The translations under genes and the position numbers were made by a program. A DNA stretch of 64,000 nucleotides from an uncultured Opitutales bacterium. Its GTDB lineage: Bacteria; Verrucomicrobiota; Verrucomicrobiia; Opitutales; Intestinicryptomonadaceae. The stretch is from NCBI GenBank assembly GCA_900548275.1, contig URJY01000003.1, positions 30,167-94,166 of the forward strand, read 5' to 3'. This document shows, in pieces, positions 11,467-40,120 of the stretch. Positions within the stretch are counted from its first letter, which is position 1, and each line of letters starts with the position of its first letter. The notes under the pieces are model-generated. The model was given only the letters and a program-made list of their open reading frames with translations, was not told where the DNA came from and did not search any database.

Positions 11467-11469
11467 AAA

Positions 11470-22004: not shown

Positions 22005-24886
22005 TCTATTGCAAATATTATTTGCGATGTTATCTTATTAGTCAATGATTTTTCGGCGGCGGCGATTAGTTTGTCGCGTTCGTCGTCTATGGCGTCTTGG
22101 GCGGCGAAAAGTTTGCGCCGTAGGTTCATTCTTTCCGTTTCGGCGGCTCTCAAATTACGTTGGTTTGCTATCTTCTCGTCGAGCGTATGGAGGTTGCGAG
22201 TATTCTTCTTTAAGTCGCGAATTTGTTTGTCGATTTCCTTGATTTTCAAGTCGAGGGACGTTTTGCGGTCTTCGCTCCAACGCTCGAGTTTCTCGACTTC
22301 GGCATCGAACTGTTTAGCGGTTTTCTCGGTGTTGTCGGCGATAATTGCCGCTTTTTGGCTTTCAAAGAAAGGTTCAAGAGGTGTCGAATCAAACGCGTCG
22401 GGGAGATCGTATGTTCGGGCGTTGAGGTTGAAAAATCTGCGGGCGGTATCGGGATCTATTTGGTTGCCGAGGTCGTCAACACAGGTGAAGACAAGGTGTT
22501 CTTCGGGCTCGGTTGTGCCGATTGTGATTTTTGAGAGCATCAGTTTGCCCGACTTTTTCGGCAGCTGTTCGATAACCGAAATTTTACCGATTGTGTTTTC
22601 GTAATCGAAGAGAACGCCGCGGTATGGAAGATCGCGGTTGGCGGCGCGGGCGATGAGCTTTTGGGCTATCGGGTGCGTGATGCCGTAGGGCTGGCAATAT
22701 TCGCCGTTCCATTTTATGGCGTAGAGTTTTTTATCCACAAAGTCGGGCGCGGTCTCGTTAAGCATTTGGAACGTGAGATTTTCTTCGTCGAAAAACACGC
22801 CCTGACTTGAAAGCTCGTATTTTGTAAGCGCCCAAAGAATTGCCTGCAATTTGTCGATGGTTGCGTGCGAAGCCTCGTGGAAAACGTTGAGGCGTTCGGC
22901 AACTTCGGCGTCGAAATTTTCAAGCAGTTTGCGCCGCGCCTTGCGGATATTTTCGGCAATCTCCAAAGAAAAGCGCGTTTGAATGAAGTCGAACTCCATT
23001 TGGATCTGCGCGGACGTTCGGCATTTTTGATAGATTTCTGCAATTTTGCGCTCGAAGTCTAATCCGTTGCCGAGCGCGCCGAGAATTTCGTCGCTCGCGC
23101 CGAACACGCCCTCGAAGAGATGGAGCTTTTCGTTGAGAATCTCGTAGACGCGTTGGTCGGCTTCGTTATTGAGGTTGAGGAAATTCACGACAACGACATC
23201 GTATTTTTGTCCGTATCGATGGCAACGTCCGATTCTCTGTTCAATACGCTGCGGGTTCCAAGGAAGGTCGTAATTGACCACGAGCGAGCAAAATTGCAGG
23301 TTGATACCTTCTGCCGCGGCCTCCGTTGCAATCATAATCTGCGCGTTGTCGCGGAAGTGCTCGACAAGAGCCGTGCGCATGTCGGCGGATTTTGACGCGG
23401 TAATGCGGTTCTGATTTTTCGCTTTCCACTCGTTGTAAATACGTTTCGACGTTTCGTCGGAATTTGTGCCGTTAAAGAGCATCAATTTGCCGTCGTAGCC
23501 GTTTTCGGAAAGAATTTGCCAGATGTAGTCTTGCGTTCGGCGCGACTCCGTAAAGATTACCGCCTTGCGCGCCCCGCCGAGATTTTCCGCCATAGCAAAA
23601 CCACTTTTGAGCGCGGCAAGCAGAGCCTCGCCTTTCGCATTTTGACGGATACTTTGCGCGAGCGAAAGATAATTTTTAAGATCCGCAATTTCGCTCTTTA
23701 TCGCGTTGATTTCGAATTCCGACAACGGTTCGTCGGGTTGGTCGGGAGAGGGGAGATCTCCGTCGAAAGATTCGTCGTCTTCATCGTCGTCGAACTCGTC
23801 GGAGGCGGAGTATTCGTCCGCCGTTTCGAAATCCTGCGACACATCGAGTTTAGCCTGTTCGGTGCCGTCTTTGAGCATAAGTTCAAGGCGGGTAATAAGA
23901 GTTTCAAGTGTTCCCGCAATAGCAAAGGACGACGAGGCAAGCAGTTTGCGCAAAATCATTGTCATCAGTTTGCGTTGCCCGTTTGGCAGGGCTTTAAGGG
24001 CGTCGCGCCGCAAGTATTCGGAAATTTGTTCGTAGAGCTTTTCTTCGGCTTTTGTCGAATAAAACTCCTGTGTGAAAACGTGCCGCTTTGTGTATTTTAT
24101 ATACTTCAAAACCTGCTTGCGAAGAGTACGTTTACACAAGTGCGAAAGGCGTTCGCGGAGGTCGGCAAGTGTGGTGTCTGTCGGATTGTTTACAAAGAGT
24201 TCGCGAAAACTTTTCTCGTCGCCGAAAACGTGCGGATCGATAATTCCGACAAGCCCGTAAAGTTCCATCAGATTGTTTTGTAAAGGCGTTGCCGTAAGCA
24301 AAATTTTCGGCGCACTTTGAAGCGAATTTTTTATCGAAGTCCCCATTTTGTTTCCGCTTTTATAGACGTTGCGCAAGCGGTGGGCTTCGTCTATTACCGC
24401 TAAATCCCACGGTGTTTGTTTCAAGTAAGCCTCCTTGTTGCGGGCGAACGCGTAGGACGTGATTACGATTTCATCGCAATTGAAGGGGTTTAGTTTTCCG
24501 TTTTTTATCGCTTCGTTGAACGACTTGTTTTCGAGGATTTTTGCCGAAAGGGAGAATTTTTCTTCCAGTTCAATCTGCCATTGCTTGCGCAAATTTGCCG
24601 GAACGATAACCAGAATCCTCCGTTTTTTCTCTGCCCAACGCTGTGCGATTAAAATTCCGGCTTCGATGGTTTTACCAAGACCTACCTCGTCCGCAATAAG
24701 CGCACCGCGCGAGAGCGGCGAACTGAACGCAAAAACGGCGGCATCGACTTGATGCGGATTCAAGTCGACGCGTGTATTCATAAGCGCGGCGGCAAGGCGT
24801 TCGACCGTTCCTAGCGGGGCGCGAAGGGAAAGTTCATTTGCGAATAGTTGGGCGTGATAGTCTGTAATCATTTCAAAATCTGCCAA
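21989..24886 (-). CDS. SNF2/SWI2-family helicase with about 350-aa C-terminal extension
   Basis: 965 aa; DEVGLGKT (motif I), DEAHRLRN (motif II), LLTATPLQN (motif III), helicase-C region with QRIGRCHRYGQ (motif VI). Confidence 0.85.
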   Translation of the reverse strand: MADFEMITDYHAQLFANELSLRAPLGTVERLAAALMNTRVDLNPHQVDAAVFAFSSPLSRGALIADEVGLGKTIEAGILIAQRWAEKKRRILVIVPANLRKQWQIELEEKFSLSAKILENKSFNEAIKNGKLNPFNCDEIVITSYAFARNKEAYLKQTPWDLAVIDEAHRLRNVYKSGNKMGTSIKNSLQSAPKILLTATPLQNNLMELYGLVGIIDPHVFGDEKSFRELFVNNPTDTTLADLRERLSHLCKRTLRKQVLKYIKYTKRHVFTQEFYSTKAEEKLYEQISEYLRRDALKALPNGQRKLMTMILRKLLASSSFAIAGTLETLITRLELMLKDGTEQAKLDVSQDFETADEYSASDEFDDDEDDESFDGDLPSPDQPDEPLSEFEINAIKSEIADLKNYLSLAQSIRQNAKGEALLAALKSGFAMAENLGGARKAVIFTESRRTQDYIWQILSENGYDGKLMLFNGTNSDETSKRIYNEWKAKNQNRITASKSADMRTALVEHFRDNAQIMIATEAAAEGINLQFCSLVVNYDLPWNPQRIEQRIGRCHRYGQKYDVVVVNFLNLNNEADQRVYEILNEKLHLFEGVFGASDEILGALGNGLDFERKIAEIYQKCRTSAQIQMEFDFIQTRFSLEIAENIRKARRKLLENFDAEVAERLNVFHEASHATIDKLQAILWALTKYELSSQGVFFDEENLTFQMLNETAPDFVDKKLYAIKWNGEYCQPYGITHPIAQKLIARAANRDLPYRGVLFDYENTIGKISVIEQLPKKSGKLMLSKITIGTTEPEEHLVFTCVDDLGNQIDPDTARRFFNLNARTYDLPDAFDSTPLEPFFESQKAAIIADNTEKTAKQFDAEVEKLERWSEDRKTSLDLKIKEIDKQIRDLKKNTRNLHTLDEKIANQRNLRAAETERMNLRRKLFAAQDAIDDERDKLIAAAEKSLTNKITSQIIFAIEWRIV

Positions 24887-25645: not shown

Positions 25646-27115
25646 ATGAAAAATAAGATAGTTTCTTCAATCAAAACGAGCGCGGGAGAGTTACAACTTT
25701 CCGAAGATACGCTCTGCAAGTACACGATATTTATAGGCAGCACGGGCAGCGGGAAAACAACTTCGCTAAACGTGCTTTTGCGCGATATCATCGGGTATAA
25801 TGCGGAAGACGAAACGCAGAAAGTCGGATTGCTCATCTTCGATTTAAAAGGCGACAACACGCTTTTCAAAATCCGAAAATGGGCGGAAGAATGTGGACGC
25901 GGGGAAGACGTAATAGATTATTGCGCCGACTCTAAGTTCTACTTCGACCCGCTCGGAGGCTTGGACAGCTTCCGCAAAATTCCTGAATACGTCGAACGAC
26001 TTTACAACATCTTTCCATTCCAGAGTAGCGAAGTTTATTGGGAACAGTCCCTAAGAAAGCGGTTCAAGACAGTGCTGACTTACTGCTTATTCCGACATGA
26101 AAAGACAAGGTTTAAACTCTTCTTGGAAGAACTGCGAGAGTTTACAACGGCGGATTCGTCAAACAGTAATTGGCGCGACGTGATGGACTCTGTTGAGATG
26201 GTTTTACGTGCACTTGAAAAGAAGTCGAAAGGCGCAGCAACCGAATCATATGAAATTTTGCGCGAACTTTTAGAGAACACGCGGGCGGGCGTTAACGAAT
26301 GGCAACGTCTCGACCCTCGAACCAAGAGCAATGAGTTAAGCACGATGTCGAACTTGATTTCATGTTTCGGTAACCCGATTACAAACGGGCATATTTTCGA
26401 GGGGAAGAGCAAGACGCGCTTGGACATCGGAGAACTTGTGTGTTCGGGAAAGATTGTCGTGGCTTCGTTCGACGGAATTGCAAACAGGCAGTCGGCGTCG
26501 GCAATTTGTAAACTTTTAAAGAGCGATGTCTACGGACACATTCAGGCGCGGCAAAATCCAAGCCGGCTTGTTGGTATTGTTATGGACGAATTTCCGCTTG
26601 TGGCAACCGACGGAGAAAACATCTCGGGCGACGGCTTCAATATGCAGACAATCCGTTCGAAACGCGGCTTTGTGATTGCCGCAACGCAGGGACTTGTCGG
26701 GCTTGATTTATCAATAGGCGAACAAGCTCGCCGCAGGCTTATGACGAATTTCAACAACGTTTTCGTCTTCAAAAGCAACGAACGCGAAGTGCTCGAATTG
26801 GTTGATGACTTGAACTTCTGTGAGCCGCCGCGGAGAAATATTGGGTTCGGGAACGATTCTCAATCTTGCGAAAAACGCGAGGCAATAACGCTTGCTAACG
26901 CTCCCGCGGGCTATGCCGCGATAAAGCTTGCCGACGGCTTTCAGTCGAACGGTCTTGTTGAAATCGAACGTCTCTTTGTTGATACGCCGCCGATATCCGC
27001 GAATAAGCTTGAATCGGAAATTGATAAATGCGCAAAAGTTCTCCGCACCTACTTAAAGACAATCGATTTTAACGCCTACCTTAACGGTAAATTTTTAGAC
27101 AAAGACACTTTATAA
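25646..27115 (+). CDS. P-loop ATPase of the FtsK/HerA/TraD-VirD4 superfamily (coupling-protein-like, no TM segments)
   Basis: 489 aa; Walker A IFIGSTGSGKTTS, Walker B IVMDEFPLV. Confidence 0.55.
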   Translation: MKNKIVSSIKTSAGELQLSEDTLCKYTIFIGSTGSGKTTSLNVLLRDIIGYNAEDETQKVGLLIFDLKGDNTLFKIRKWAEECGRGEDVIDYCADSKFYFDPLGGLDSFRKIPEYVERLYNIFPFQSSEVYWEQSLRKRFKTVLTYCLFRHEKTRFKLFLEELREFTTADSSNSNWRDVMDSVEMVLRALEKKSKGAATESYEILRELLENTRAGVNEWQRLDPRTKSNELSTMSNLISCFGNPITNGHIFEGKSKTRLDIGELVCSGKIVVASFDGIANRQSASAICKLLKSDVYGHIQARQNPSRLVGIVMDEFPLVATDGENISGDGFNMQTIRSKRGFVIAATQGLVGLDLSIGEQARRRLMTNFNNVFVFKSNEREVLELVDDLNFCEPPRRNIGFGNDSQSCEKREAITLANAPAGYAAIKLADGFQSNGLVEIERLFVDTPPISANKLESEIDKCAKVLRTYLKTIDFNAYLNGKFLDKDTL

Positions 27116-27293
27116 TCTATGAAATCTCATCATTCAAAATCATTTTCGCGATACCTGCGCGAAGTCAAAATCAGATACAAACGCGAGACGGCAAAGCGCA
27201 GTTTTGTTATAGCTTACGAACATTGCAACCTGCCGATTCTCCACACAGCAAGACTGCTCGCCAACAAACAACTCGCATACGAAAGGAATTAAT

Positions 27294-27725
27294 ATGGACG
27301 AAAAACTTTTTCACGCACACAAAGACACACACAACCCGAACAATCCGTATCCCGACTTTGTCCGCCAAGTGGCTAAACGTACAAAAGTACCGATTGAGCT
27401 TCTGACGCGCAAAAGATATTACGGGAAGTCCGCCAACGGCAAAGGCGACAACCACCATATCTTGGACAAATCGCTTTTCCCAAAGAAGGGCACGCCAACT
27501 ATCAGTGTCTCAAAAGAAAAACACTTCGAGCTTCAATGCCTACTCGCCCAAGCCACAACCCTACAAGGCTATATGGACTACGAACAAGCCGTGAAAACCG
27601 AGTGCCCCGAAATCCAAAACCCCATCGCCCAAATCTACTGGCAACGCATAGAATCCCTCCACACCCCGTGGCGGATTAGATTGACCTTATGGGTAAAAAA
27701 GGTTTTTGGAGATCGTATTCTGTAG
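27294..27725 (+). CDS. Hypothetical protein
   Basis: 143-aa ORF, no motif. Confidence 0.35.
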   Translation: MDEKLFHAHKDTHNPNNPYPDFVRQVAKRTKVPIELLTRKRYYGKSANGKGDNHHILDKSLFPKKGTPTISVSKEKHFELQCLLAQATTLQGYMDYEQAVKTECPEIQNPIAQIYWQRIESLHTPWRIRLTLWVKKVFGDRIL

Positions 27726-27812
27726 ACAGCCTGAAGTATCTCAACCGTTGGCAGAAATCTGCCCAACGGTTGCATGTATATAAGTAAACGTTTTGTTTTA
27801 TCTCGTGTTGCA

Positions 27813-30053
27813 TTACAAATCAATATCCCTGCTTGTTAGTTGGCGGGGTGGTTCTTTTTTGGGGGCTGGTGGAATAGTCGGGGTGGTTGTGGGTATGGAC
27901 TTGGTCAGAGCGGAATTATCTTTGGGGTAGGTATTTTGTTGCGACTTGGGGTAGTTCGTTGTGGGTGGTGGGGTAATTCTTGGTTGCTGTTTAGGTATTG
28001 GTCGGGCGGGTGGTGGCTGAAGTGGCGGTGTCAGTTGTGGTTTCTGGGTGAAAGTTGGTTCGGGGTATGCTTGGCGGGTTTGTACTCTATTATATAGAGA
28101 TGGACTGGCAGAAGTTGGTCTTGTGGGGTGAGTATTGTTATGCTCGGGCGATGAACTTTTATTCATTACGGCGGGACGGTTTACAAGTTGCCGTTCTCGT
28201 GTGGTGGGTTGTTGCGAATGTTGCGGCTGGGTATGGATTTGGGAAGACGGAGCTTGTTGCATTGGGGGTGTATGATTGGGGTACGATGTTGGTATTGATA
28301 CCTTTCTTAGTTGAGATTGTGCCTCAATCGGCGTAAGAGTCGTCTTTGTCTGGATTGGTGTTTTGGTCTTATCGGAGTAGGAGAAATGCGGTAACGGATG
28401 ATGTTGTGATTGCGTCTGTTGGGGTATCGGGATAGTTTGGTAGGATTGCGTTCTTGCCGAAGTTTGTGTGATGTTTTGTGGGAGTGTGTTCGTGATTTGG
28501 TTTTTCACTTCAATTTTCTTCAACCCAAACGAGCGTAGTAGTGGCATCGCGTAGTCTTCTTTGTGGGGCAGAGTTGTTTGATCGTTCGAAATTAAGACAA
28601 GTTTTGAGCTTGTTGCGTTTACAGCTTTTATGAGTTTAAGGAAGTAGTCGCAGCCGATAAAATCGGCGTTGTCCAAAATAAAGATTGAAGGGGATTGGAT
28701 TTTGCCGATTTCGGCAAAGCGCGTCGTGATGACATTAAAATTCATGCGAACTCGCCTGCGACTGGCGTTTAAGTAGACAATCGGCACCTTGTTGGCGTCT
28801 ACGAAGTGGTTCAGATTTTTAGTGAACGACGCCCCGCCGTCGTCGTTAACTTCAAAGATGGCACTCTGTTCGAAATACATATTTTGGTAGCGGATATCGG
28901 GAATTTCTATGTCGGTCGGGCAGGAAACAAACGTGCGTGCCGAAGCTTTGGCAAATTCCCCGCGCAATTCTGCGTGCACAGGCGGTTGATTGTCCTCCAC
29001 CCCGCATAATCGGGCAGCCCAGTTTGCGATTTTGCCAAAAAGGTTTTGGGGCGTTTGTGGGACTTTCTGTTTGGGGTTAATACCCTTCGGCGATGGATGT
29101 TTTTGTGGCATTTTACCCATCATTCCGCGGGCAACCTTTGCTATCTGGTTGCCGCAGGCAATTTTTATCTCTTTACGAATGCGCCTTAACGCCGCCTTTG
29201 TCATACGGTCTGGGCGTTTGGGTTCTTTAAAGAGATTGGCTATTCTTGCGATTGCGCGTTTACCGTATTTCTTATTCGGATTTTTTGCCTGCAATTCTTT
29301 TGCTTTGCTTTTTATCTGCTTGATCCGCTTGCTGAACCTGTCGCACAACGACTGAGGAATTCCCGCGATTAACACTTCTCCTTTGGCGTCTAACGATGCT
29401 TTTATTCCTTTGTCTTTCAGGCGTTCAACAAGCTTTTGGCGGTAAATCAATGTTGCTACTTGCGACTCTTTGTAGATTTCCAGCGGATCCAAGGCTTTGT
29501 ATTTTTGCTCGTTTTGGTCGTAAGTTAGATTGAAAATTTCGTAATGGCTGTGCAGTTGCGGGTCGTCAGCTCTGCTTAAAAGGTGCGTGATTTTCACGCC
29601 AAGAAAACTTCCAGTAAAGACTGAATCATTCGCCCCGTTCTTCCGAATTCTCACCTTTGCCTTTTCCTCAATCCAGCGCATGGCTTCGTCCGCCGCCTCT
29701 TCGTGGATTGCCATAAAATCGTTGTCTTTGCCGAGCATGTAAACGGCAAGGATGGAAAACGCTTTCGGCGCGGATATACACGCGCTGAAAATTTGCCGTT
29801 TGCATTCCCGCGGTCTTAGCTTTGCTTTCGTAAGCGGGTGTTTGTTGTCTAAAACTGACTTGAAAACATCCGAGGGAGCACTTTTCTCAATGCCCAGCTT
29901 CCCCGCAAGTCTACCGAAAAGCTTCGCGTTTGTGTCATTGTTCTTGTCGTAACAGAAGTAACCTAGCAGATCGTTTTCAAAATATTGAAGTACCTGCGCC
30001 TTATCCATGAACTTAGAAATTGTGAGCATGCCTTTTGAGTTTAGGCATTTCAT
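27813..30053 (-). CDS. MobF/TrwC-type conjugative relaxase with Pro/Gln/Thr-rich C-terminal tail
   Basis: 746 aa; relaxase motif III-like HLLSRADDPQLHSHYEIFN (HxxSRxxDPxLHxH); N-terminal Tyr cluster; low-complexity P/Q/T tail. Confidence 0.65.
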   Translation of the reverse strand: MKCLNSKGMLTISKFMDKAQVLQYFENDLLGYFCYDKNNDTNAKLFGRLAGKLGIEKSAPSDVFKSVLDNKHPLTKAKLRPRECKRQIFSACISAPKAFSILAVYMLGKDNDFMAIHEEAADEAMRWIEEKAKVRIRKNGANDSVFTGSFLGVKITHLLSRADDPQLHSHYEIFNLTYDQNEQKYKALDPLEIYKESQVATLIYRQKLVERLKDKGIKASLDAKGEVLIAGIPQSLCDRFSKRIKQIKSKAKELQAKNPNKKYGKRAIARIANLFKEPKRPDRMTKAALRRIRKEIKIACGNQIAKVARGMMGKMPQKHPSPKGINPKQKVPQTPQNLFGKIANWAARLCGVEDNQPPVHAELRGEFAKASARTFVSCPTDIEIPDIRYQNMYFEQSAIFEVNDDGGASFTKNLNHFVDANKVPIVYLNASRRRVRMNFNVITTRFAEIGKIQSPSIFILDNADFIGCDYFLKLIKAVNATSSKLVLISNDQTTLPHKEDYAMPLLRSFGLKKIEVKNQITNTLPQNITQTSARTQSYQTIPIPQQTQSQHHPLPHFSYSDKTKTPIQTKTTLTPIEAQSQLRKVSIPTSYPNHTPPMQQAPSSQIHTQPQHSQQPTTRERQLVNRPAVMNKSSSPEHNNTHPTRPTSASPSLYNRVQTRQAYPEPTFTQKPQLTPPLQPPPARPIPKQQPRITPPPTTNYPKSQQNTYPKDNSALTKSIPTTTPTIPPAPKKEPPRQLTSRDIDL

Positions 30054-30417
30054 TTCGAAACAAACTTTGCGGTACTGACGGCTACGCCGTCTTGAATATC
30101 ACAGGGTTTTTCTCGCGGGATACGCGTTGCATTTCCCGCTCGATGGGGACGCTACGCGTCCATTAATTATCTGCTTGTTTCGGAGTGCTACACTAACCCC
30201 TCCGACTTCCGTCGGAGGGTAAAGCCCGCAGTTGTTGCCGTAATTCGGCTCGGCTAAATCAGGGTGAAATACCCACCTCCCGAAATCTTTGTACCCTTCC
30301 GTTTCCCCATCTGCACTCTGCCGATTTTACCGAAGCGATTGTTCCACTAACTACCCCCCCTGAAACTTTTTTTGGGAATTTTCGCAAAGCCGAAGCAATC
30401 TTCCTATACTGTAACCT
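30054..30417. promoter_or_regulatory. Candidate oriT / divergent promoter region between the relaxase and the next gene
   Basis: Contains a perfect inverted repeat ccctccgac-ttc-cgtcggaggg (about 30201..30224) and other imperfect inverted repeats immediately upstream of the relaxase gene. Confidence 0.35.
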
Positions 30418-31521
30418 ATGAAGCGAAAAATAAATACGCGCAAAGGTATCCCGCAACAAATTGCGGGAAGTGTAGAAAACATAAAACACGCGATTAAGGA
30501 AAACTGCAATCACGTCTTAAATGCGAAGAAATCCGTAGAGAAAGGGGAAAGTTGTATCTTTGACTCGTGCGTAGACCTTGTCTTGCTTGCCCCTTCGGCG
30601 AACAAAGCCCCCACTTATCGGTGGTTGTGCGATGAGGTGTTTTGTCTTGATCAGAAAGAGGGCTGTCCCGTTAAGCCGGACATATACAAAATCGCAAAGT
30701 CGCTCGGAGAAGTCTGTGTTAAGTTCCAATCGCCGCAAAAGGAAAACTTGCGCAAAGTTGGATGTTCGCGTTGGCAGACAATACGAAAGGCATTGGCTCG
30801 CTATCCAAAAGACAAGCGCGATGAGATTTTGAATTCGTTGGCATCAGCCTCTTTTGACGAATGCGGGGAGGCATTGACACAAAAAGTCAACGCTACCGCA
30901 GCCGCCGCAAATATACAACCCGTGCAAAAGGAGAAAAGTGAACGGCAAAAGGTGAGGGATTCTTTTAATGCAACCCTAAAAAATATAACGGACGATACCC
31001 AGTTAAAGGCTTTGGAGCTGTATTTAGCTAACTTCAATGCCCCAGAGGTTGCGATGCAAAACGATACTGCCGAGGATGTGGAAGAAGTTCAAACAGTACA
31101 AACGCAAGAACCGTCGCCCACAAAATCGGCTACGCCGAATCAAACGCCAATGGAAGAAGACTTGGGTATTTCAATACCAAACTCACCGAGCGATAACTTC
31201 GTTACAAACACCCCCGCCGCTAATACTATTCAGCCGCAGGAAAACCCAACGAACCCTTTCCCTATTCTTGACGGGCTTAGCGACCGTGAAAAGGCGGAAA
31301 AGATTCGGGTGTGGCTAACGAGACTTGAAGGGCGCGAAGCATACAAGCGAGATGCAAACAGCTACGAAATGAAAATCGCGTGGGGTGTCGTCAAAGGAAG
31401 GATACCAGCGCAGGAAGTTTCCGCACTTGAAACACACGAAGACCTTCGCAACTTGGCGGAGGCGAAGTCCTACCGTCAATTTATCCCGATGCAAGATAAA
31501 GGCGATTACCTCCATCCGTAA
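30418..31521 (+). CDS. Hypothetical protein (acidic, Thr/Gln-rich middle region)
   Basis: 367-aa ORF upstream of the integrase, same strand. Confidence 0.45.
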   Translation: MKRKINTRKGIPQQIAGSVENIKHAIKENCNHVLNAKKSVEKGESCIFDSCVDLVLLAPSANKAPTYRWLCDEVFCLDQKEGCPVKPDIYKIAKSLGEVCVKFQSPQKENLRKVGCSRWQTIRKALARYPKDKRDEILNSLASASFDECGEALTQKVNATAAAANIQPVQKEKSERQKVRDSFNATLKNITDDTQLKALELYLANFNAPEVAMQNDTAEDVEEVQTVQTQEPSPTKSATPNQTPMEEDLGISIPNSPSDNFVTNTPAANTIQPQENPTNPFPILDGLSDREKAEKIRVWLTRLEGREAYKRDANSYEMKIAWGVVKGRIPAQEVSALETHEDLRNLAEAKSYRQFIPMQDKGDYLHP

Positions 31522-31552
31522 ATTTTGACTGGCACTGACTAAGCTCATATTC

Positions 31553-32716
31553 ATGAGAAAAAGTTCAGTCCAAATTGTTGTTCGGAAAAATCGTCCCACT
31601 CCGTTTACAGTCAAGTTCCGCGAAATGGGGCAGCGAAAAACGCTCGCCTTCAAAACGCGGAGCGAGGCGGAAATTTTCGCAAACACCCTTGAACGCTCAA
31701 AACGCCTGCCCGATGACGTAATGTTAAATTCGTCGGACCTAATGGCGTTTATGCGTTTGAAGTCGGCTTGTGAAGCGGGCGGGGTTTCGCTTGAAGCGGG
31801 AGTTGAAAAGGCGATATCTTCGCTTATCACGCCCAACGACTACATAAACGGCGGGTTGTCGCTTGCCGCCGCGCTTGAAAAATTCGTAAAGACGCGCGAG
31901 GCTCTGAATTCGCGCAGTTCAACAATAGCCGATTACAGCAGCTACATCGCCAAAGCTCAAAATTTTTTCGGGGTAAACAGAGCTATAAAGACAATCACCA
32001 AGCGCGACTTGGACGCACTACTTGACACACAGGAGCGTCTTTCGGTGAAGAAGGCGTTGTGTGTAAAGCTCAGGATTTTCTTCAAATATTTCCGCCAAAA
32101 GGAGTGGATAGACGAAAATGTTGCCGAAACGCTTACGGTTGAATCTCGCAGGAGGGACGAAGAAAATCCCACGATTCTCACGCCCGAACAGACCGCGCTT
32201 GTTTTCAAGTCGCTACCGAACGATTCAGACGTTTTGGCGAGCTACGCTCTGTGGGCGTTCGCGGGATTGCGTCCCGAAGAAGTCTGTCCGAAAGACAAAA
32301 AGGGGCGGCTTGAATGGAGCGCAATCAATTTCAACGAGCGCGTCATTACTGTTTGCGGAAGCGTTTCAAAGGTGCGTAAAAATCGCAAACTGCAAAATTT
32401 GCCCGAAAATCTTTGGCGGTTCTTGGAGCTGACTCCGCCAGAAAAGCGGATCGGCGCGGTATGCACGAAATCGTATTCAACAATGCGCAGAATCCGCCGC
32501 AAAATTCCCATTGAATTGCCGAAGGACATTTTCCGTCATTCGTTCGCCACATACGGTTACTATAAATACGATCCGAAAGACCTGATTGTTATGATGGGGC
32601 ACCTTCGCGGTTTTACTACTTTTGAGAAACACTATATGGGGCTTGCCGACAGGGCATCCGCCGAAAAATATTTTGCCATTATGCCGCAAAAAGATTCGGA
32701 CACGCCTAAACTATGA
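31553..32716 (+). CDS. Tyrosine-type site-specific recombinase/integrase
   Basis: 387 aa; C-terminal catalytic region with GLRPEEV (Arg), FRHSFATY (HxxR) and the terminal HLRGFTTFEKHY nucleophile Tyr. Confidence 0.8.
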   Translation: MRKSSVQIVVRKNRPTPFTVKFREMGQRKTLAFKTRSEAEIFANTLERSKRLPDDVMLNSSDLMAFMRLKSACEAGGVSLEAGVEKAISSLITPNDYINGGLSLAAALEKFVKTREALNSRSSTIADYSSYIAKAQNFFGVNRAIKTITKRDLDALLDTQERLSVKKALCVKLRIFFKYFRQKEWIDENVAETLTVESRRRDEENPTILTPEQTALVFKSLPNDSDVLASYALWAFAGLRPEEVCPKDKKGRLEWSAINFNERVITVCGSVSKVRKNRKLQNLPENLWRFLELTPPEKRIGAVCTKSYSTMRRIRRKIPIELPKDIFRHSFATYGYYKYDPKDLIVMMGHLRGFTTFEKHYMGLADRASAEKYFAIMPQKDSDTPKL

Positions 32717-32719
32717 GGA

Positions 32720-32869
32720 ATGAAAAAGCCAAATATGGATAACGACCAAATCGAAATGATAATTCGCGCGATTCTCTCGCGTCCCGAATTCATCAGGGCA
32801 GTTGCCGCCGAGCTGAACAATTTCAAGTCAATCGGCAAACCCGATAAAATTGACATCTACCAAGCGTAG
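32720..32869 (+). CDS. Small hypothetical protein (49 aa) immediately downstream of the integrase; excisionase/accessory candidate
   Basis: Hand-translated: MKKPNMDNDQIEMIIRAILSRPEFIRAVAAELNNFKSIGKPDKIDIYQA. Below the ORF-track size cutoff. Confidence 0.3.
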   Translation: MKKPNMDNDQIEMIIRAILSRPEFIRAVAAELNNFKSIGKPDKIDIYQA

Positions 32870-33387
32870 CGGATATTGAAATGCTCAAATCGCACGGTTC
32901 ACACATTGCGCAAGCTTTACCCCGAAATTGTCTCGGGCGGAGAACACTCGCACAAATACGACCGCTCGGCAGTGGAGCGCGTCGCCCAAATCCGCTCCGA
33001 ACGGTATTTGAGATAGCAGCCTGCTTTATAATGCTTGAGAAAACATACAATTTGGCGGCAATTTGTATTGTTTATAAAGCGTTATCGAAAAAGGTAAAAA
33101 TTTCCGTGTTTAAACGGATTTCTTTATTGCGCTGATAACTTACACCGAATCCTCCTAAGTAAATAGTAAACATGGAGGATGTGATAAGTCCTCCCCTGTT
33201 TGCCGATTGCGAGTTGTAGAATTATAATTTATCAATTTATAATTTTAGTTTTGTCTGTACCGTAAACTTCCTATACTTACAAGATTTTACCTTTTACTTT
33301 TGGGTGAGGGCGTTCGATTGGCAAAATAACGGAAAATTAAATAACCGTCTCAGCTTTAAACTTGATATTTAACAACCGCACAATACG

Positions 33388-34401
33388 ATGAAAGTAAGAT
33401 TAAATTCGGGTATTTTCAAGATGACAAGTCGCATAGATATAAAAGAAAACACGCTTCTGCATACGGATGCGGCTTTGCTCGATTTGCTTCTCTACGACAA
33501 TACAACAAAGCGAAATATCATATGGGCAACCGATAACTACGAAAAATTCGGTATACCGTATGCCTATTCAGCCCAAATATATCCCGAGCTAATCACGGAT
33601 AAAAACGGCAATATTATTCGCCCCAGGGTTGCCAAAACGCTTGAAGAACAAACCGCAAGAGTTAAGGATAAGGCAGAAGTCTTTACTCCGTCGTGGATAT
33701 GCAATGCACAAAATAATCTTGTAGACTCTGCATGGTTCGGTCGAACAAATGTTTTTAATAAGGAACGCAATCAATCGTGGGTAGTCAATTCCAAGCGAAT
33801 TGAATTCCCAACAAAAAAGACTTGGCAGGATTATGTATTGGCTAACCGCATGGAGGTATCTTGCGGCGAGGCTCCATACCTTGTCAGCCGTTACGATACA
33901 ATTACGGGGAAGCCAATCCTCCTAAAACGCCGAATCGGGCTTCTTGACCGAAAACTGCGCGTTGTTTCAGAAAATACGGAAAATGTAGAAGATTGGTATA
34001 AGTGGGCGATCTTCGCATTCAAAAGTGTCTACGGGTTTGAATGGCAGGGCGATAACCTTCTTCTGGCAAGAGAAAACCTTCTTTATTCATTTTGCGACTA
34101 CTACAAGGCGAAATTCGGAGGTTCCCCGTCAAGACAGCAAATGCTGGAAATCGCCAATATAATATCGTGGAATATTTGGCAGATGGACGGGCTAAAAGGG
34201 GTCGTCCCCAATACATGTCACGATACGATAACCGTGGAAAAGGACTTACTCGGCAATAAGAAAACAATAAAGCCGTGCGAAGGTTGTAAAAAGGGTGATA
34301 TAACCAAGCATAGTGGCAAATATTGCTATATAATGGATTGGCAGTGCAATAAGAAAATCAGGTATATATCTATACTGAAAAAAGGCAGAAATAAGACATG
34401 A
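33388..34401 (+). CDS. Hypothetical protein with Cys-rich C-terminus, translationally coupled to the large helicase-MTase-like gene
   Basis: 337 aa. Stop overlaps the next start (ATGA at 34398-34401). C-terminal CEGCKKG...CYIMDWQC resembles a zinc ribbon. EVFTPSWI resembles MTase motif X but no AdoMet motif follows. Confidence 0.55.
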   Translation: MKVRLNSGIFKMTSRIDIKENTLLHTDAALLDLLLYDNTTKRNIIWATDNYEKFGIPYAYSAQIYPELITDKNGNIIRPRVAKTLEEQTARVKDKAEVFTPSWICNAQNNLVDSAWFGRTNVFNKERNQSWVVNSKRIEFPTKKTWQDYVLANRMEVSCGEAPYLVSRYDTITGKPILLKRRIGLLDRKLRVVSENTENVEDWYKWAIFAFKSVYGFEWQGDNLLLARENLLYSFCDYYKAKFGGSPSRQQMLEIANIISWNIWQMDGLKGVVPNTCHDTITVEKDLLGNKKTIKPCEGCKKGDITKHSGKYCYIMDWQCNKKIRYISILKKGRNKT

Positions 34402-37400
34402 GCAAGTATAACTACACGAACCCGTTTTCATACAAACTGATATATATCTTCCGAATTAACGACGATCAGCATTCGGGCATTCTAAAGGTTGGCGACACGT
34501 CAATTGACTACGCCGGCTCGCCTGACGACCTCACCCCATCTTGTGAATTACTCAACAAGGCGGCAAAGGAACGCATCAATCAGTATACGAGAACCGCAGG
34601 CATAAAATACGAACTCCTGTATACCGAACTCGCTTTCTACAAAGGTAGCGACGGGAAAAATTACGCTTTTATAGACAAGAAGCTCCATAAAGTTCTTACG
34701 AATTCGGGGATACAAAAGGTTGAATTGTACGGCGCGCAAGAATGGTTTAAGACCGACTTGGAAACCGTAAAGAACGCAATTGCCGCTCTCAAAGCGGGCA
34801 GAAAGAGTTTATCCTCCACGGAAATCTCCGAAGACAAAAGTCCCATTGTGTTGCGGCCATCTCAAATCGAAGCGGTAGAGAAAACCGTCAAATATTTCAA
34901 GAAGAAGTCCAACAAACAATTCTTGTGGAATGCAAAAATGCGTTTCGGAAAGACATTGGCGGCAATGGAAGTGGCAAAACGGTTAAATTTTGCAAAAACA
35001 CTAATCCTTACGCATCGTCCCGCCGTATCCGAGGGTTGGTTTGACGATTTCAAAAAGGTCTTCTACGACGTCAAGTGGTATTACGGTTCTAATTCACACG
35101 AGGGCATAGATTCGCTTTTGAAGCGGGGAGAAAACTTCATCTATTTTAAATCCATACAAGACTTGCGCGGATCGGCGGAAGTCGGCGGAAAGTTTGCGAA
35201 AAATCAGGACATATTTAAGACGGACTGGGATTTTCTGATTATTGACGAAGCTCATGAAGGAACGAGAACAAACTTGGGCAAAGATGTCCTTGATTCCTTA
35301 AAGAACGGCGAAAATACCAAGGTTCTGTTCCTTTCGGGAACGCCGTTTAACTTGGTGTCGGACTTCAACGAAGACGAAACCTATTCCTGGACATACGTCG
35401 ATGAACAACGGGCAAAACAGGAATGGTTCGAAACCCATTTGGGAGACTCCAATCCCTACGGCGACCTGCCTTCGATGAAAATTTACACCTTTGAGCTTTC
35501 AAAGCAGTTCAAGAATTTTCAGGATTCGGACAAGGCATTTAACTTCCGCGAATTTTTCAGGGTTTGGACCGGCGACGCGCTTCGCGACGGCAAAAATGTG
35601 TCAAGCTCTGAAATCGGGCACTTCGTTCACGAAAAAGATGTCCGCCACTTTCTTGATTTAATTTCCCACAAGTCCGACGGTAGTATGTATCCGTTTGCAA
35701 CGGAAGAATTCCGCGGCTATTTTAACCATACCTTGTGGATGGTTCCGGGGGTACGCGAAGCCAAAGCTCTAAGCGCTTTGCTTAAAGAACACGAAATATT
35801 CCGCCATTTTGAAATCGCAAACGTTGCAGGCGACGGCGATGAAGAACAAAATGAAGACGACGCTTTGAAAGTCGTCCGAAATGCCATAGACAACAATCAG
35901 TATACAATTACCTTGTCTTGCGGCAAACTCACAACGGGTGTTACGGTTAAGGAATGGACGGCGGTACTTATGCTTGCAGGCGCATACTCAACTTCGGCGA
36001 TGGGATACTTGCAGACAATATTCCGCGTGCAATCTCCCGCCATAATTGACGGTAGGCAAAAGGAGGTATGCTATGTGTTCGATTTCGCGCCCGACCGCAC
36101 ATTGAAGATGATGGCGGATGCCGTCAATATGTCAACAAAAGCGGGCAAAACCGACGGCGGGCAGAAGAAGGCCATGGGGAAGCTCCTCAATTTTTGCCCC
36201 ATTATTTCCATAGACGGGACAAATATGCGCGAGTATGACGTTGACCAAATGTTGACGCAGCTCAAACGCGCCTACATAGATAAAGTCTCCCAAAACGGCT
36301 TTGACGATGCCCACATATACAACTACAACATCGGCGCGTTTACCGAAAAGGATAAAGAATTCATCAAACACTTGAGTGCCATTGTAAAGGCAAGCAATCA
36401 ATCCAAGGCTCCAAGTGATATTCCCATTAACGATCTTGGGTTTGACAATGAGGAGCACGAAAAGGACGATACCCAGCCGAAATCCGATTCGCAGACACAA
36501 AAGTCGGAGGATAATAAAAAGAGGAAAGAAGAACGCGAACGACGCCGAACCCTTATCTCAAACCTTCGCGCAATTTCAATCCGTATACCGCTTTTAGTCT
36601 ACGGCGCAGACATTCCGTTCGAACAGGATATCAACATTGATAACCTGACCGACATCGTTGACGATGTCTCTTGGGAAGAATTTATGCCCAAAGGGCTCTC
36701 AAAGGAAGACTTTAAACGCTGCAAAAAATTCTATGACGAAACCATATTTGTGGGCGCAGGTAGAGCCATTCGAAACAGAATAAAAGACGCCGAAAAGCTC
36801 CCCGTTATGGAACGCGTAAAGGAAATAGCCGAAATATTCGGAACTTTCCGCAATCCAGATAAGGAAACAGTTCTTACGCCGTGGCGCGTTGTCAATATGC
36901 ACTTGGGAAATTGCATCGGTGGATTCAACTTCTTTGACGAAGATTTCAAACGCACACTTGAAACGCCGCGGTGCATTGACCACGGGAAAGTTTCCAAAGA
37001 AACTGTGTGGAATACCGATGCAAAAATACTTGAGGTAAATTCCAAGACGGGCTTGTATCCGCTCTATATGGCATACTCCATATTCACGGCTCGCCGCCAG
37101 AAGAAACCCGAAGTGAGCGATGAGCAGCACTGGGCGGATACTTTAAAAGACAACATATTCGTGCTTTGCAAAACACCAATGGCGGTAAGCATTACCCGCC
37201 GAACATTGGCTGGTTTTAGAAATCTACAAGTAAACGCGAAATATAGAAAAGATTTGGTAAAAGACGCACAAGAAGAAAGCTCCCGCGAAAAACTCGCAAG
37301 CGAAATTCAAAGCGGTAAAAACTTTTGGAAGATAAACGAGGATAACATTATGAAATTTGACGCAATAGTAGGCAATCCGCCGTATCAGGAAGCAAAGGGC

Positions 37401-38348
37401 ACGAATATTGTCCCAATTTTCAACCACTTCATGACGTTGGCAAAAGAAATAAATCCACGTTACATTTCCATGATTATGCCGTCGCGTTGGATGAAGGGCG
37501 GTAACCGCGGTCTTGACGATTTCATGAAAGAAACTCTCGCCGACACGCGAATTGAATTACTTCACGATTACATAGATCCCAAAGAAGTTTTCCCCGGGGT
37601 CGAAATAAAAGGCGGTGTCTGTTATTTACTTTGGGGGAAATCCCATAAGGGAATGTGCAAATATTCGTTGCACGACGTGTCGAAGAAAGAACAATCGGTT
37701 GAACGCTATCTTAAAACGGAAGGTTGCGACAGCTTTGTTAGATACCCAATTTGCGTGTCTATTTTGGAGAAGGTTCGTAATTTCAACGAACAATCTTTCT
37801 CCGGATTGGTTTCTGTAAGAGAGCCCTATGGATTAAAATCAGATTTCTTTAAACATCCCCAAAAATATGGGGTTGAACACCTCTCAAAAGATCCCATAAA
37901 GGATGGAATAAAAATTTATGGATTAGAAAACCTAAAACGGGTTGAGCGGTATGTCCCCAATTCATATAAAGTTAAGCGCAGAGAGGAAACTCTCAACTCT
38001 TACAAGATATTTATCCCCAATGCGTATGGCTGCGGAGCCATTGGAGAGGAACTCGGCACGCCGATACTCGGCACGCCGATGAGTATATGTACGGAAACCT
38101 TCTACTTAATTGGTCCATTCCAAGGCGAAGATGAAAGTAAAAACGCGTTAAAATACCTAAAAACAAAATTCTTCAGACTCCTTGTCGGATTAAAGAAAAT
38201 CACCCAACACACCACGCGCGATACGTACTCCTTTGTGCCAATTCAAGACTTTTCACGTCCATGGACAGACGGAGAGCTCTATAAAAAATACGCCCTAACC
38301 GACGAAGAAATAGACTTCATCGAAACTATGATCAAGCCTATGAAATAA
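34398..38348 (+). CDS. 1316-aa multidomain protein: GIY-YIG/T5orf172-like N-terminus + ResIII-type SF2 helicase + NPPY (N6-adenine methyltransferase-like) domain + C-terminal specificity-like region; Type ISP-like single-chain R-M/defence enzyme candidate
   Basis: Helicase motifs MRFGKTLAAM (I), LIIDEAHEG (II), LFLSGTPF (III), QTIFRVQSP (VI). FDAIVGNPPYQEAKG is methyltransferase motif IV. N-terminal LIYIFRIND...GILKVGDTS resembles GIY...YIG. No canonical FxGxG AdoMet motif was seen. Confidence 0.8.
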   Translation: MSKYNYTNPFSYKLIYIFRINDDQHSGILKVGDTSIDYAGSPDDLTPSCELLNKAAKERINQYTRTAGIKYELLYTELAFYKGSDGKNYAFIDKKLHKVLTNSGIQKVELYGAQEWFKTDLETVKNAIAALKAGRKSLSSTEISEDKSPIVLRPSQIEAVEKTVKYFKKKSNKQFLWNAKMRFGKTLAAMEVAKRLNFAKTLILTHRPAVSEGWFDDFKKVFYDVKWYYGSNSHEGIDSLLKRGENFIYFKSIQDLRGSAEVGGKFAKNQDIFKTDWDFLIIDEAHEGTRTNLGKDVLDSLKNGENTKVLFLSGTPFNLVSDFNEDETYSWTYVDEQRAKQEWFETHLGDSNPYGDLPSMKIYTFELSKQFKNFQDSDKAFNFREFFRVWTGDALRDGKNVSSSEIGHFVHEKDVRHFLDLISHKSDGSMYPFATEEFRGYFNHTLWMVPGVREAKALSALLKEHEIFRHFEIANVAGDGDEEQNEDDALKVVRNAIDNNQYTITLSCGKLTTGVTVKEWTAVLMLAGAYSTSAMGYLQTIFRVQSPAIIDGRQKEVCYVFDFAPDRTLKMMADAVNMSTKAGKTDGGQKKAMGKLLNFCPIISIDGTNMREYDVDQMLTQLKRAYIDKVSQNGFDDAHIYNYNIGAFTEKDKEFIKHLSAIVKASNQSKAPSDIPINDLGFDNEEHEKDDTQPKSDSQTQKSEDNKKRKEERERRRTLISNLRAISIRIPLLVYGADIPFEQDINIDNLTDIVDDVSWEEFMPKGLSKEDFKRCKKFYDETIFVGAGRAIRNRIKDAEKLPVMERVKEIAEIFGTFRNPDKETVLTPWRVVNMHLGNCIGGFNFFDEDFKRTLETPRCIDHGKVSKETVWNTDAKILEVNSKTGLYPLYMAYSIFTARRQKKPEVSDEQHWADTLKDNIFVLCKTPMAVSITRRTLAGFRNLQVNAKYRKDLVKDAQEESSREKLASEIQSGKNFWKINEDNIMKFDAIVGNPPYQEAKGTNIVPIFNHFMTLAKEINPRYISMIMPSRWMKGGNRGLDDFMKETLADTRIELLHDYIDPKEVFPGVEIKGGVCYLLWGKSHKGMCKYSLHDVSKKEQSVERYLKTEGCDSFVRYPICVSILEKVRNFNEQSFSGLVSVREPYGLKSDFFKHPQKYGVEHLSKDPIKDGIKIYGLENLKRVERYVPNSYKVKRREETLNSYKIFIPNAYGCGAIGEELGTPILGTPMSICTETFYLIGPFQGEDESKNALKYLKTKFFRLLVGLKKITQHTTRDTYSFVPIQDFSRPWTDGELYKKYALTDEEIDFIETMIKPMK

Positions 38349-38353
38349 CTATT

Positions 38354-39490
38354 ATGGCAGATCAAGAAGCGATATATGAAATAATAGCCGATCACATTCT
38401 TAATGAGTCGGAAGATGAGCATTTGGACTTCAAATTAAAATGGCATTCCGATTTTCCGCCACTATTAAAAGACATAATAGCAATGGCAAATTCGTCGGAT
38501 GATAAAAATTCGTATATTGTATTTGGTGTTTCTGACGATTTTAATATAGTCGGACTAACAGCCGAAGACCAGAGATACAAGAAAGCTGATATCGCCGTGG
38601 CGATTCGCGATAGTCATTTTGCGGGGAATGGCGTTCCTGAAATCGATTTGCATTCTGTTTACATTGACGGGAAACAACTTGATGTATTGGAAATAAAAAA
38701 GAGCAATAACGTCCCATACTACATTGCAACGCCGAAAAAAACAATATCGCCGTTTGTCATTTATACACGGGCAAATGACACAAACCGAGAAGCTACTTTT
38801 GAGGAGTCTGAACGACTCTGGAAAAAGAGATTTAACCTCTTGTTGCCCGAAAAAGAACTGTTTAATAGGCGCATTACTGAACCTGATAATTGGGAAAAAT
38901 ATAAAGACGAATATTTCTATACCTATGACGCATCTTATAGGTTGAAAATAGGTAATGAAACAGAAGAAGGAACTGCTCCATTTTACGCATATATAATAGA
39001 TGATTGGGGTCGCTTTTCATCAAACAACGCTGTGCTTAGTCATAACGGGAATGAAATAGCTTCCTTTCAAATAGCCTATCTTGACGGGTTCAGATTGGAG
39101 CTCGTCGTTCCCGAACATTTCTCTATAAAAATTGAAGATAACGGTAAACCAATTTACATCATCTACCGTGGATATATAAGGGATAGCCTGCGGATGAACT
39201 TGGCAAATTTTCTTTATTTAAAAGGTCTTGTCGAAAGTGATATAGAATACAGAGTGCACTTCGAAAGACTAAGAGATTCGTTTGTTATTCACGAATCAAT
39301 GGAAGAGAAAGAGATTTTTGAATCATATATAAGAACAAATTATGCTAAAATAAAACAAGAATTGTCGAAATATAATCCAATCATTTATTCGGAAATTCCC
39401 GAGGAAAGCAAAAAAAATATAAAATGGGGAATGTTCCTGCATGAATTGCATTCTAAAAAAGATGTTTGGTATCCAGAACCACCTAAATAA
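38354..39490 (+). CDS. Schlafen/AlbA_2-domain protein (divergent-AAA DNA-binding-like)
   Basis: 378 aa; N-terminus EDEHLDFKLKWHSDF...LLKDIIAMANSSDDKNSYIVFGVSD matches the AlbA_2 pattern. Starts 6 nt after the stop of the large fusion gene. Confidence 0.55.
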   Translation: MADQEAIYEIIADHILNESEDEHLDFKLKWHSDFPPLLKDIIAMANSSDDKNSYIVFGVSDDFNIVGLTAEDQRYKKADIAVAIRDSHFAGNGVPEIDLHSVYIDGKQLDVLEIKKSNNVPYYIATPKKTISPFVIYTRANDTNREATFEESERLWKKRFNLLLPEKELFNRRITEPDNWEKYKDEYFYTYDASYRLKIGNETEEGTAPFYAYIIDDWGRFSSNNAVLSHNGNEIASFQIAYLDGFRLELVVPEHFSIKIEDNGKPIYIIYRGYIRDSLRMNLANFLYLKGLVESDIEYRVHFERLRDSFVIHESMEEKEIFESYIRTNYAKIKQELSKYNPIIYSEIPEESKKNIKWGMFLHELHSKKDVWYPEPPK

Positions 39491-39935: not shown

Positions 39936-40040
39936 AAATGGTGGGAGTGTGGCGAATTGGCTTTTCTTCGGCTTCGCCTCGAAAAGTCTGTTCTGACTCC
40001 CACAAAAAAACTTCCAAGCCAAAGACTTGGAAGTTTTTCT
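39936..40040 (-). repeat. Third copy (U3) of the 105-nt terminator + CCA-ending minihelix unit, directly downstream of the tRNA-Val 3' end
   Basis: About 95% identical to 11259..11466 units. Confidence 0.7.
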
Positions 40041-40043
40041 AAA

Positions 40044-40120
40044 TGGTGGGAGTAGCAGAACTCGAATCTGCGACCCCTTGCGTGTCATGCAAGTGCTCTA
40101 ACCAACTGAGCTATACCCCC
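40044..40120 (-). tRNA. tRNA-Val (anticodon GAC), CCA encoded
   Basis: Hand-folded cloverleaf: acceptor GGGGGTA/TACTCCC, D-arm GCTC/GAGC, anticodon stem CTTGC/GCAAG with loop ATGACAC, T-arm GCAGA-TTCGAGT-TCTGC, discriminator A, CCA. Confidence 0.9.

Follow-up and report, generated by a model that had tools for sequence, protein, structure and literature searches.

A two-gene module with Type ISP-like and Type III-like features and a predicted methylase N-lobe encoded by a separate gene, on an Opitutales mobile element

Introduction

In Type ISP restriction-modification (R-M) enzymes, such as LlaGI and LlaBIII, a single self-sufficient polypeptide carries an Mrr/PD-(D/E)xK nuclease, a superfamily 2 (SF2) helicase-like ATPase, a gamma-class N6-adenine (N6A) DNA methyltransferase, and a target-recognition domain (TRD). 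Type ISP enzymes use ATP to translocate, cleave by collision, and hemimethylate an asymmetric site. Here, we describe a locus with a related but divided architecture in a 64,000-nucleotide (nt) stretch of DNA (the window) from an uncultured Opitutales bacterium (GenBank assembly GCA_900548275.1, contig URJY01000003.1, positions 30,167 to 94,166). The locus consists of gene A, gene B, and gene C. As in Type ISP enzymes, the predicted nuclease-like domain, SF2 helicase, gamma-class N6A methyltransferase, and TRD of B lie in one chain. Unlike in Type ISP enzymes, the N-terminal domain of B is of the T5orf172/GIY-YIG type, the S-adenosylmethionine (AdoMet) motifs I and II of B are non-canonical, B has no sequence-level match in PDB, and, on genetic evidence, a second protein (A) accompanies B in all 76 informative loci.

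Several other described systems share parts of this architecture. In Bacillus subtilis, the dnmA(yeeA)-yeeB-yeeC operon encodes an N6A methylase, an SF2 helicase, and a T5orf172 protein, and is conserved in defence islands (PMC9973331); the Makarova 2011 defence-island survey is the source cited for it in PMC9973331. The three activities and the conserved operon in defence islands are the same as in A-B, but dnmA-yeeB-yeeC encodes three separate proteins with a complete MmeI-like methylase, whereas in A-B the nuclease, helicase, and catalytic half of the methylase are fused and the N-terminal lobe (N-lobe) is separate. No MmeI-family match for B was found in Pfam.

In Type III systems, Mod is a beta-class methylase and Res has a C-terminal PD-(D/E)xK nuclease. 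A permuted form of the A-B family (variant 1, described below) follows the same logic, with a complete methylase followed by a TRD-less helicase-nuclease, but has a gamma-class Eco57I-like methylase, an N-terminal T5orf172 domain, and a restriction (R) protein that ends in a methylase-like N-lobe. The Type IIG/IIL enzymes and stand-alone gamma-class methylases (BpuSI, MmeI, M.TaqI, CamA, and PglX/BrxX of BREX) have a methyltransferase-plus-TRD fold like that of B residues 720-1316; they lack a helicase motor and have a contiguous canonical AdoMet site, whereas B has a full SF2 helicase. The C5 methylases M.AquI alpha/beta and M.EcoHK31I are naturally split near the TRD. As in A-B, one methyltransferase fold is spread over two polypeptides, but A-B is of the N6A gamma class, is divided between motifs III and IV, and has a second, divergent N-lobe in the large subunit.

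We regard A-B as a variant of Type ISP-like or Type III-like R-M that is widespread and already annotated as R-M in databases, and whose architecture is not described in the literature we found. The original prediction, made from the sequence alone, had seen no named system here. This holds for experimental work, as literature searches (PDC-S50, T5orf172 with Eco57I, split methyltransferase, and Type ISP with GIY-YIG) found no experimental study of the A-B family, but not for annotation, since PADLOC and REBASE-derived models label the genes MTase_II and REase_MTase_IIG.

Genes A and B form a conserved pair

We located three plus-strand open reading frames at the positions originally predicted (Table 1), and direct reading of the sequence bore out the overlap of the TGA of A with the ATG of B (ATGA). 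B and C are separated by 5 nt (CTATT), not by the 6 nt that had been claimed. The AT-richer setting is also as described: G+C content is 39-46% over 33-40 kb, compared to 53-60% for the chromosomal flanks. All quoted motifs were found, namely EVFTPSWI in A (residues 97-104) and LIYIFRIND/ILKVGDTS (14-35), GKT (184-186), DEAH (283-286), SGTP (313-316), QTIFRVQ (539-545), and FDAIVGNPPY (987-996) in B. Because A and B each have more than 8,000 homologues in a metagenome protein collection, we conclude that both are real, conserved genes.

A scan of one genome per species retrieved relatives of B from at least 594 species representatives. We compared the best 80 of these loci, which come from Bacteroidota, Bacillota, Spirochaetota, Verrucomicrobiota, Planctomycetota, Cloacimonadota, and other phyla. 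In 76 of the 80 loci, a homologue of A ends a few nt from the start of B, and the remaining four loci have less than 500 bp of upstream sequence. Hence, all 76 informative loci, which span many phyla, have A immediately before B. The same adjacency is found in IMG/VR contigs and on Lactococcus and Enterococcus plasmids. These observations agree with the predicted role of A as a partner of B and indicate that A-B is an obligate two-gene module. Small XRE-type helix-turn-helix (HTH) genes, which by analogy to R-M systems are controller-like, lie upstream of A in about 10 loci, as well as in Enterococcus faecium and in Tenacibaculum phage PTm1; no HTH controller gene was found adjacent to the A-B copy of the window. 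In two IMG/VR loci (L161 and L170), A-domain genes are followed by 6 kb of sequence, in which neither a catalytic half nor a helicase was detected at the thresholds used.

In contrast, C does not share this conservation, and the proposed three-gene operon was not borne out. C accompanies the A-B pair in none of the 80 loci, and the genes that follow B fall into 47 distinct clusters across 49 loci. Identical copies of C are confined to the same island. A sibling island has 93% nucleotide identity to the window over 28418-37391 and also over the final 89 nt of B, but carries an unrelated 385-amino-acid (aa) gene and a DUF4325 gene instead of C right after the B stop codon. C itself matches Pfam SLFN_AlbA_2 (9e-17) and the hidden Markov model of the PADLOC candidate PDC-S50 (2.2e-78; residues 7-353 of 378 against model positions 5-358 of 387). 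Nothing sets C apart from that candidate family, on which no paper was found. Because of the absence of co-occurrence and the different cargo of the sibling island, we place C outside the A-B module, where it is swappable cargo of the defence island and a single-gene defence candidate independent of A-B. The post-B position appears to be a hotspot for defence cargo. A DUF262 (GmrSD-like) protein directly follows B on the E. faecium plasmid pK195-6b-A (L088, 11131-12375), and a separate T5orf172+DUF5655 protein does so in another locus (L101, 10014-10769).

Gene A resembles the N-lobe of a gamma-class methylase

The original prediction had described A as a Cys-rich protein with a motif-X-like segment, a zinc-ribbon-like C-terminus, and no other methyltransferase motifs. 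We found that A also has motif I (EVSCGEAPY), motif II (YGFEW), and motif III (IWQMDG), whose invariant positions were scored in 43 family members (Table 1). A has no match in Pfam. It has a full-length PADLOC match (1.8e-122) to the REBASE-derived MTase_II ("Type II methyltransferase") model. The Cys-rich insert is not universal, as an Enterococcus homologue lacks it.

To place A relative to complete methylases, we drew on its 1,880 relatives among 1.8 billion cluster representatives, of which the best 150 were inspected. In 39 of these 150 proteins, an NPPY-type motif lies downstream of the A domain. Most of these long proteins have 640-720 aa, with KFDxVIGNPPYQ immediately after the A domain and then a tail that is homologous to B residues 985-1316; they are ordinary single-chain Eco57I-like methylases. 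Because the long proteins fuse the A domain to an NPPY half, A corresponds to the N-terminal part of such methylases. We therefore identify A as a stand-alone N-terminal lobe, predicted to bind AdoMet, of an Eco57I-like gamma-class N6A DNA methyltransferase, ending just before motif IV.

In the jumbo phage PTm1, each half of a methylase has its own gene, and a helicase is absent. The gp277 protein starts with MKFDIIVGNPPYQ and is 37% identical to B residues 985-1315, while gp279 is 53% identical to A. In this locus (L086, 3579-6011), an HTH gene lies between the C-half gene (gp277) and the N-half gene (gp279). Thus, the lobe occurs without being covalently joined to a catalytic half, and the pair is a natural split N6A methylase, presumably with a role in anti-restriction. 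This arrangement suggests that an A-type lobe and a catalytic half can assemble and work in trans.

The B homologues of Lactococcus and Enterococcus plasmids (40% identity) have another kind of partner upstream, a minimal 230-aa N-lobe. The minimal Lactococcus partner has the textbook motifs GEVFTPQW, FLEPAAGDGNFL, and IYGIEF, the last of which corresponds to motif II of A, and it has no NPPY.

Gene B combines a nuclease-like domain, a helicase, and a methyltransferase fold

Pfam matches, family invariants, and Foldseek agree with the Type ISP-like domain order proposed for B (nuclease-like domain, SF2 helicase, NPPY methyltransferase, specificity tail), with a T5orf172/GIY-YIG-type N-terminus in place of Mrr. 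Among the Pfam families that were expected, Eco57I and ResIII in B and SLFN_AlbA_2 in C were recovered, but the matches at the N-terminus of B are borderline (residues 57-128; MUG113, 1.3e-4; T5orf172, 7e-3). Within a family of 25 B homologues at 50-84% identity, T5orf172 matched 10 members and MUG113 matched 6. The GIY-YIG-type residue set (Tyr of GIY, second-strand K/Y-I-G, Arg, His/Tyr, and metal-binding Glu) is complete: Y16, K30-x-G32, R59, H97, and E115 are invariant in the 25 homologues. Pfam reported no PD-(D/E)xK (Mrr-type) nuclease family for B. The helicase motifs listed above, as well as TTGV (512-515), are also invariant in the family. NCBIfam gave only a sub-threshold and irrelevant RadD match.

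The C-terminal part of B matches Pfam Eco57I (3e-28, residues 919-1065), and KFDAxxGNPPY is invariant in the family. The PADLOC MTase_II model PDLC03375, which has 348 positions and starts just before NPPY, covers residues 983-1315, and the PADLOC REase_MTase_IIG model has its best stretch over residues 871-1315 only. An AlphaFold2 (AF2) model of residues 720-1316 has a predicted local distance difference test (pLDDT) score of 91 and a predicted template modelling score (pTM) of 0.88. In a Foldseek search, this model matched CamA (2e-16), followed by BrxX/PglX, M.BseCI, BpuSI, and M.TaqI (2e-16 to 2e-10). The model thus indicates that residues 720-1316 form a complete gamma-class N6A methyltransferase fold with a C-terminal DNA-recognition domain. 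No PDB chain matched A, B, C, or a profile of B residues 800-1085 by sequence, and because these searches were empty, the equivalence of motifs with those of solved methylases rests on fold matches and spacing. An assignment of the B C-terminus to the beta class, with "YGCGAIG" as motif I, was dropped, as the fold search and strand order indicate the gamma class with an N-lobe upstream of NPPY.

In the gamma-class motif order X-I-II-III-IV(NPPY)-V-VIII followed by the TRD, residues 819-1316 of B show motif X', motif I', motif II', NPPY, and the tail, and A shows motifs X-I-II-III only. The canonical FxGxG motif is missing from B, as the original prediction had noted. Where the NPPY chain would be expected to hold its AdoMet site, B has invariant NSKTG and CKTP; the canonical versions are in A. 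We designate this N-lobe of B as N'. Non-canonical as they are, the motifs of N' do not vary within the family, and the B homologues of Lactococcus and Enterococcus share them.

The specificity region of B is exchanged as a cassette

The relatives P0148, P0150, and P0152 share 90-100% identity with B over residues 1-1000, but over residues 1000-1300 the identity falls to 18-50%. Similarly, in the nucleotide comparison with the sibling island, identity is lost at 37391 and regained at 38260, which places the breakpoint at residue 998, two residues past NPPY. These patterns indicate that the tail of B behaves as a cassette that is exchanged to change specificity. In two other loci (L133, 3958-6007; L142, 9949-12992), the B homologue is followed by one or two additional catalytic-half/TRD cassettes, of which at least one is inverted. 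They are flanked by 45-nt inverted repeats (84-87% complementary) that span the DAIIGNPPYQ codons, and they probably provide phase-variable specificity by inversion. No silent cassette was found adjacent to the A-B copy of the window.

A permuted variant redistributes the same parts

In about 15 of 80 IMG/VR loci, the parts are arranged differently. In this arrangement (variant 1), the gene for a 650-aa long methylase (P0247) lies 10 nt upstream of a gene for a 1,124-aa protein with a T5orf172-like domain and a helicase. The latter protein is 34% identical to B residues 59-691, and its C-terminus is an N'-like lobe (TNQIFTPKKVV, DLYMKSGLY, VYGLAPTE) without NPPY. A variant-1 copy on a Bifidobacterium plasmid is disrupted by IS256 and shows the gene order only. 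From the motifs, both permutations appear to comprise two N-lobes and one catalytic/TRD half. Variant 1 has this half joined to A, and the arrangement of the window (variant 2) has it joined to N'. Two single database proteins join the parts in other ways: P0290 fuses an A domain to a B-like N-terminus (B residues 23-846), and P0270 joins an A domain to B residues 619-1316. Because either could be an assembly chimera or a truncation, we give them little weight.

Proposed mechanism and alternative explanations

We consider it probable, though by no means certain, that A and B together constitute a two-subunit, ATP-dependent, sequence-specific R-M enzyme of Type ISP-like organization, in which A is needed for methylation. 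B would supply the T5orf172 nuclease, the SF2 translocase, the gamma-class fold with the catalytic NPPY half, and the target-recognition tail. A, translationally coupled to B, would be needed for host-protective N6-methyladenine methylation because neither the canonical glycines of motif I nor the acidic residue of motif II survive in N'. An encounter with unmethylated target sites would set off ATP-driven translocation, and the T5orf172 domain would cleave. The context that we count in favour of an R-M function comprises the translational coupling of A and B, the XRE-HTH genes, cassette swapping, and the defence-island settings. The analysis shows the domain identities, the obligate pairing, the swapping of cassettes, and that fused, split, and permuted versions exist; methylation, cleavage, a physical A-B complex, the N-lobe that supplies AdoMet, and the role of each N-lobe are inferred.

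Several observations weigh against this interpretation. The AF2 model of B residues 720-1316 is a complete CamA-like fold in cis, with no obvious vacant place for the half-fold of A. Motif I of M.TaqI also lacks the first glycine and has an E-x5-G spacing like that of B (E879-x5-G885), and by this analogy B alone might bind AdoMet. The A and B families have no profile-profile similarity in hhalign, a result that does not identify A and N' as paralogues. The correspondence between N' and the C-terminus of the variant-1 R protein comes from a weak hhalign match (E 0.0026, probability 11%) and motifs read by eye. Nuclease activity is a prediction for T5orf172 domains in general, the Pfam match is borderline, and the sources searched contained no methylation, cleavage, or phage-resistance data on the A-B family.

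Some of these points would be expected if B were a self-sufficient Type ISP-like enzyme that binds AdoMet via its unusual motif I, with A as an accessory or regulatory, non-catalytic protein derived from a methylase N-lobe. In that case, A might serve as a sensor of AdoMet or hemimethylation, as an assembly or anti-toxicity factor, or as a DNA clamp that uses its helical domain and zinc ribbon. The fold of B is complete in cis and its top matches are active methylases, the spacing of its motif I equals that of M.TaqI, and the invariance of the N' motifs suggests a working site and not decay. We nevertheless find this explanation the less likely one. Nearly all class I methyltransferases have an acidic residue in motif II; A keeps it, but B has an invariant CKT in its place. 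Moreover, canonical AdoMet motifs are retained both by A-type partners and by the unrelated minimal partner of the Lactococcus type, which would be hard to account for if it did not matter whether the partner binds AdoMet, and variant 1 joins the catalytic half to the A domain and not to N'. The non-canonical AdoMet motifs of B could alternatively mean that the pair never methylates. The methyltransferase-like module of B would then only read DNA, A would be an inhibitor or antitoxin, and restriction without self-marking would be modification-dependent, would proceed by translocation and collision, or would act through abortive infection. Consistent with this possibility, the B. subtilis dnmA-yeeB-yeeC analogue is without a demonstrated restriction phenotype (PMC9973331). 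However, the sequence at and around NPPY is invariant, all AdoMet-binding motifs are present in A, and the swapping or inversion of cassettes is typical of enzymes that have to alter their methylation and restriction specificities in step. Given also that the helicase-free phage versions (PTm1 and FNU4) make sense only as active methylases, we judge a pair that never methylates to be quite improbable. Even less credence, very little in all, goes to A, B, and C being one three-gene defence operon. The three genes share a strand, B and C are close together, and no terminator-like site was found between them, but the lack of co-occurrence, the variety of downstream genes, the sibling island whose flanks are identical up to the B stop codon and unrelated after it, and the match of C to a single-gene PADLOC candidate all argue against such an operon.

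Within the proposed two-subunit R-M enzyme, the presence of two N-lobes raises a further conjecture, which we hold to be doubtful. One catalytic/TRD lobe would be served by alternative N-lobes, so that the enzyme would methylate with A docked, while docking of N', which would be helicase-tethered and AdoMet-incompetent, would license translocation and T5orf172 cleavage, the choice being made when the target adenine is flipped. If this is true, the fact that both permutations always keep both N-lobes would be the evolutionary footprint of lobe exchange.

Implications

The A-B family is present in at least 594 species representatives of Bacteroidota, Bacillota, Spirochaetota, Verrucomicrobiota, and other phyla, on plasmids of dairy Lactococcus and clinical Enterococcus, and on mobile elements, under generic labels only. 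If the proposed function is correct, the family would represent a motor-driven R-M enzyme with a GIY-YIG-type nuclease. The fused, split, and permuted forms indicate that an N6A methyltransferase can be split in nature between motifs III and IV, and the system may reveal how an enzyme couples methylation to restriction if its AdoMet-binding lobe forms a subunit of its own that is translationally coupled. Cassette exchange at the NPPY codons, together with the invertible spare copies of some relatives, would make the family a natural system for the reprogramming of specificity. For annotation, we suggest that A be labelled neither a complete methylase nor a "restriction endonuclease" and that C be scored as a separate system.

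Host mobile element and neighbouring defence genes

Table 1. Features of the A-B-C locus and of its host element (window coordinates; residue numbers refer to the encoded protein)
Feature	Position	Strand	Basis or remark
Gene A	33388-34401	+	337 aa; Met12 start (nt 33421) preferred by some gene callers
A, motif X AEVFTPSWICN (96-106)	33673-33705	+	Direct reading; E97 and T100 invariant in 43 members
A, motif I MEVSCGEAPYLVSRYD (155-170), strand beta-1	33850-33897	+	E156, C159, G160, E161, and P163 invariant; AF2 strand 154-157, then loop
A, motif II VYGFEWQGD... (214-230), strand beta-2 ending acidic	34027-34077	+	AF2 strand 214-218; Y215 and Q220 nearly invariant; G221 invariant
A, motif III NIWQMDGL (262-269)	34171-34194	+	W261, N262, Q265, M266, and D267 invariant; AF2 strand 263-265
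A, Cys-rich zinc-ribbon-like insert (277-320)	34216-34347	+	AF2 beta-hairpins 280-295; CxGC...C in family consensus
Gene B	34398-38348	+	1316 aa; nuclease-like domain, helicase, methyltransferase fold, and TRD in one chain
B, T5orf172/MUG113 (GIY-YIG superfamily) domain, putative nuclease (12-128)	34431-34781	+	Pfam and family invariants
B, SF2 (ResIII-type) helicase/translocase (~150-650)	34845-36347	+	Pfam ResIII 1.2e-16 (150-317)
B, own N-lobe N' (~819-984): X' NPDKETVLTPWRVVN, I' ILEVNSKTGLYPLY, II' IFVLCKTPMA (no acidic residue)	36852-37349	+	Family invariance; AF2 strands 877-880, 920-924, 946-949
B, catalytic half with motif IV NPPY (37374-37385), V-VIII, and target-recognition tail (985-1316)	37350-38345	+	Pfam Eco57I; PADLOC MTase_II; fold match
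B, swappable specificity cassette (~998-1288)	37391-38260	+	Mosaic identity; sibling-island breakpoints
Gene C	38354-39490	+	378 aa; AlbA_2/Schlafen-type protein, PADLOC candidate PDC-S50
att repeats	11414-11514 and 39988-40088		~100-bp direct repeat (51 + 48 nt exact), includes 3' 48 nt of tRNA-Val
tRNA-Val	40044-40120	-	Overlaps att repeat
Fic/DOC protein, C-terminal HTH	13259-14215	-	PADLOC SoFic 1.6e-39
Type III Res	14257-17001	-	PADLOC REase_III 9e-202
RhuM (PDC-S05)	16998-18020	-	Between Res and Mod
181-aa PDC-S04 protein	18021-18566	-	Between Res and Mod
Type III Mod	18566-20284	-	MTase_III 7e-179
FRG-domain protein (PDC-S15)	20309-21157	-
DrmD-like SNF2 helicase	21989-24886	-	PADLOC DrmD 1e-214
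Coupling-protein-like ATPase	25646-27115
TrwC relaxase	27813-30053	-	Long Pro/Gln-rich tail
Tyrosine-recombinase-like protein	31553-32716		387 aa; no Pfam match at 1e-3

The A-B-C block lies at the tRNA-Val end of an integrative mobilisable element of about 28.5 kb, which the att repeats delimit. Beyond this block, the element carries several other defence genes (Table 1), including a complete Type III R-M system on the minus strand (14257-20284). The DrmD-like helicase is followed by a 285-aa protein without a family match; no other DISARM genes were seen beside this helicase, and the cluster that it forms with the 285-aa protein and the FRG-domain protein may be a separate candidate system. 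A 367-aa protein is encoded among the mobilisation and integration genes of the 25646-32716 region. Further partial copies of the att repeat at 11275-11344, at 11379-11395, and near 39938-39986 suggest tandem or serial integrations.

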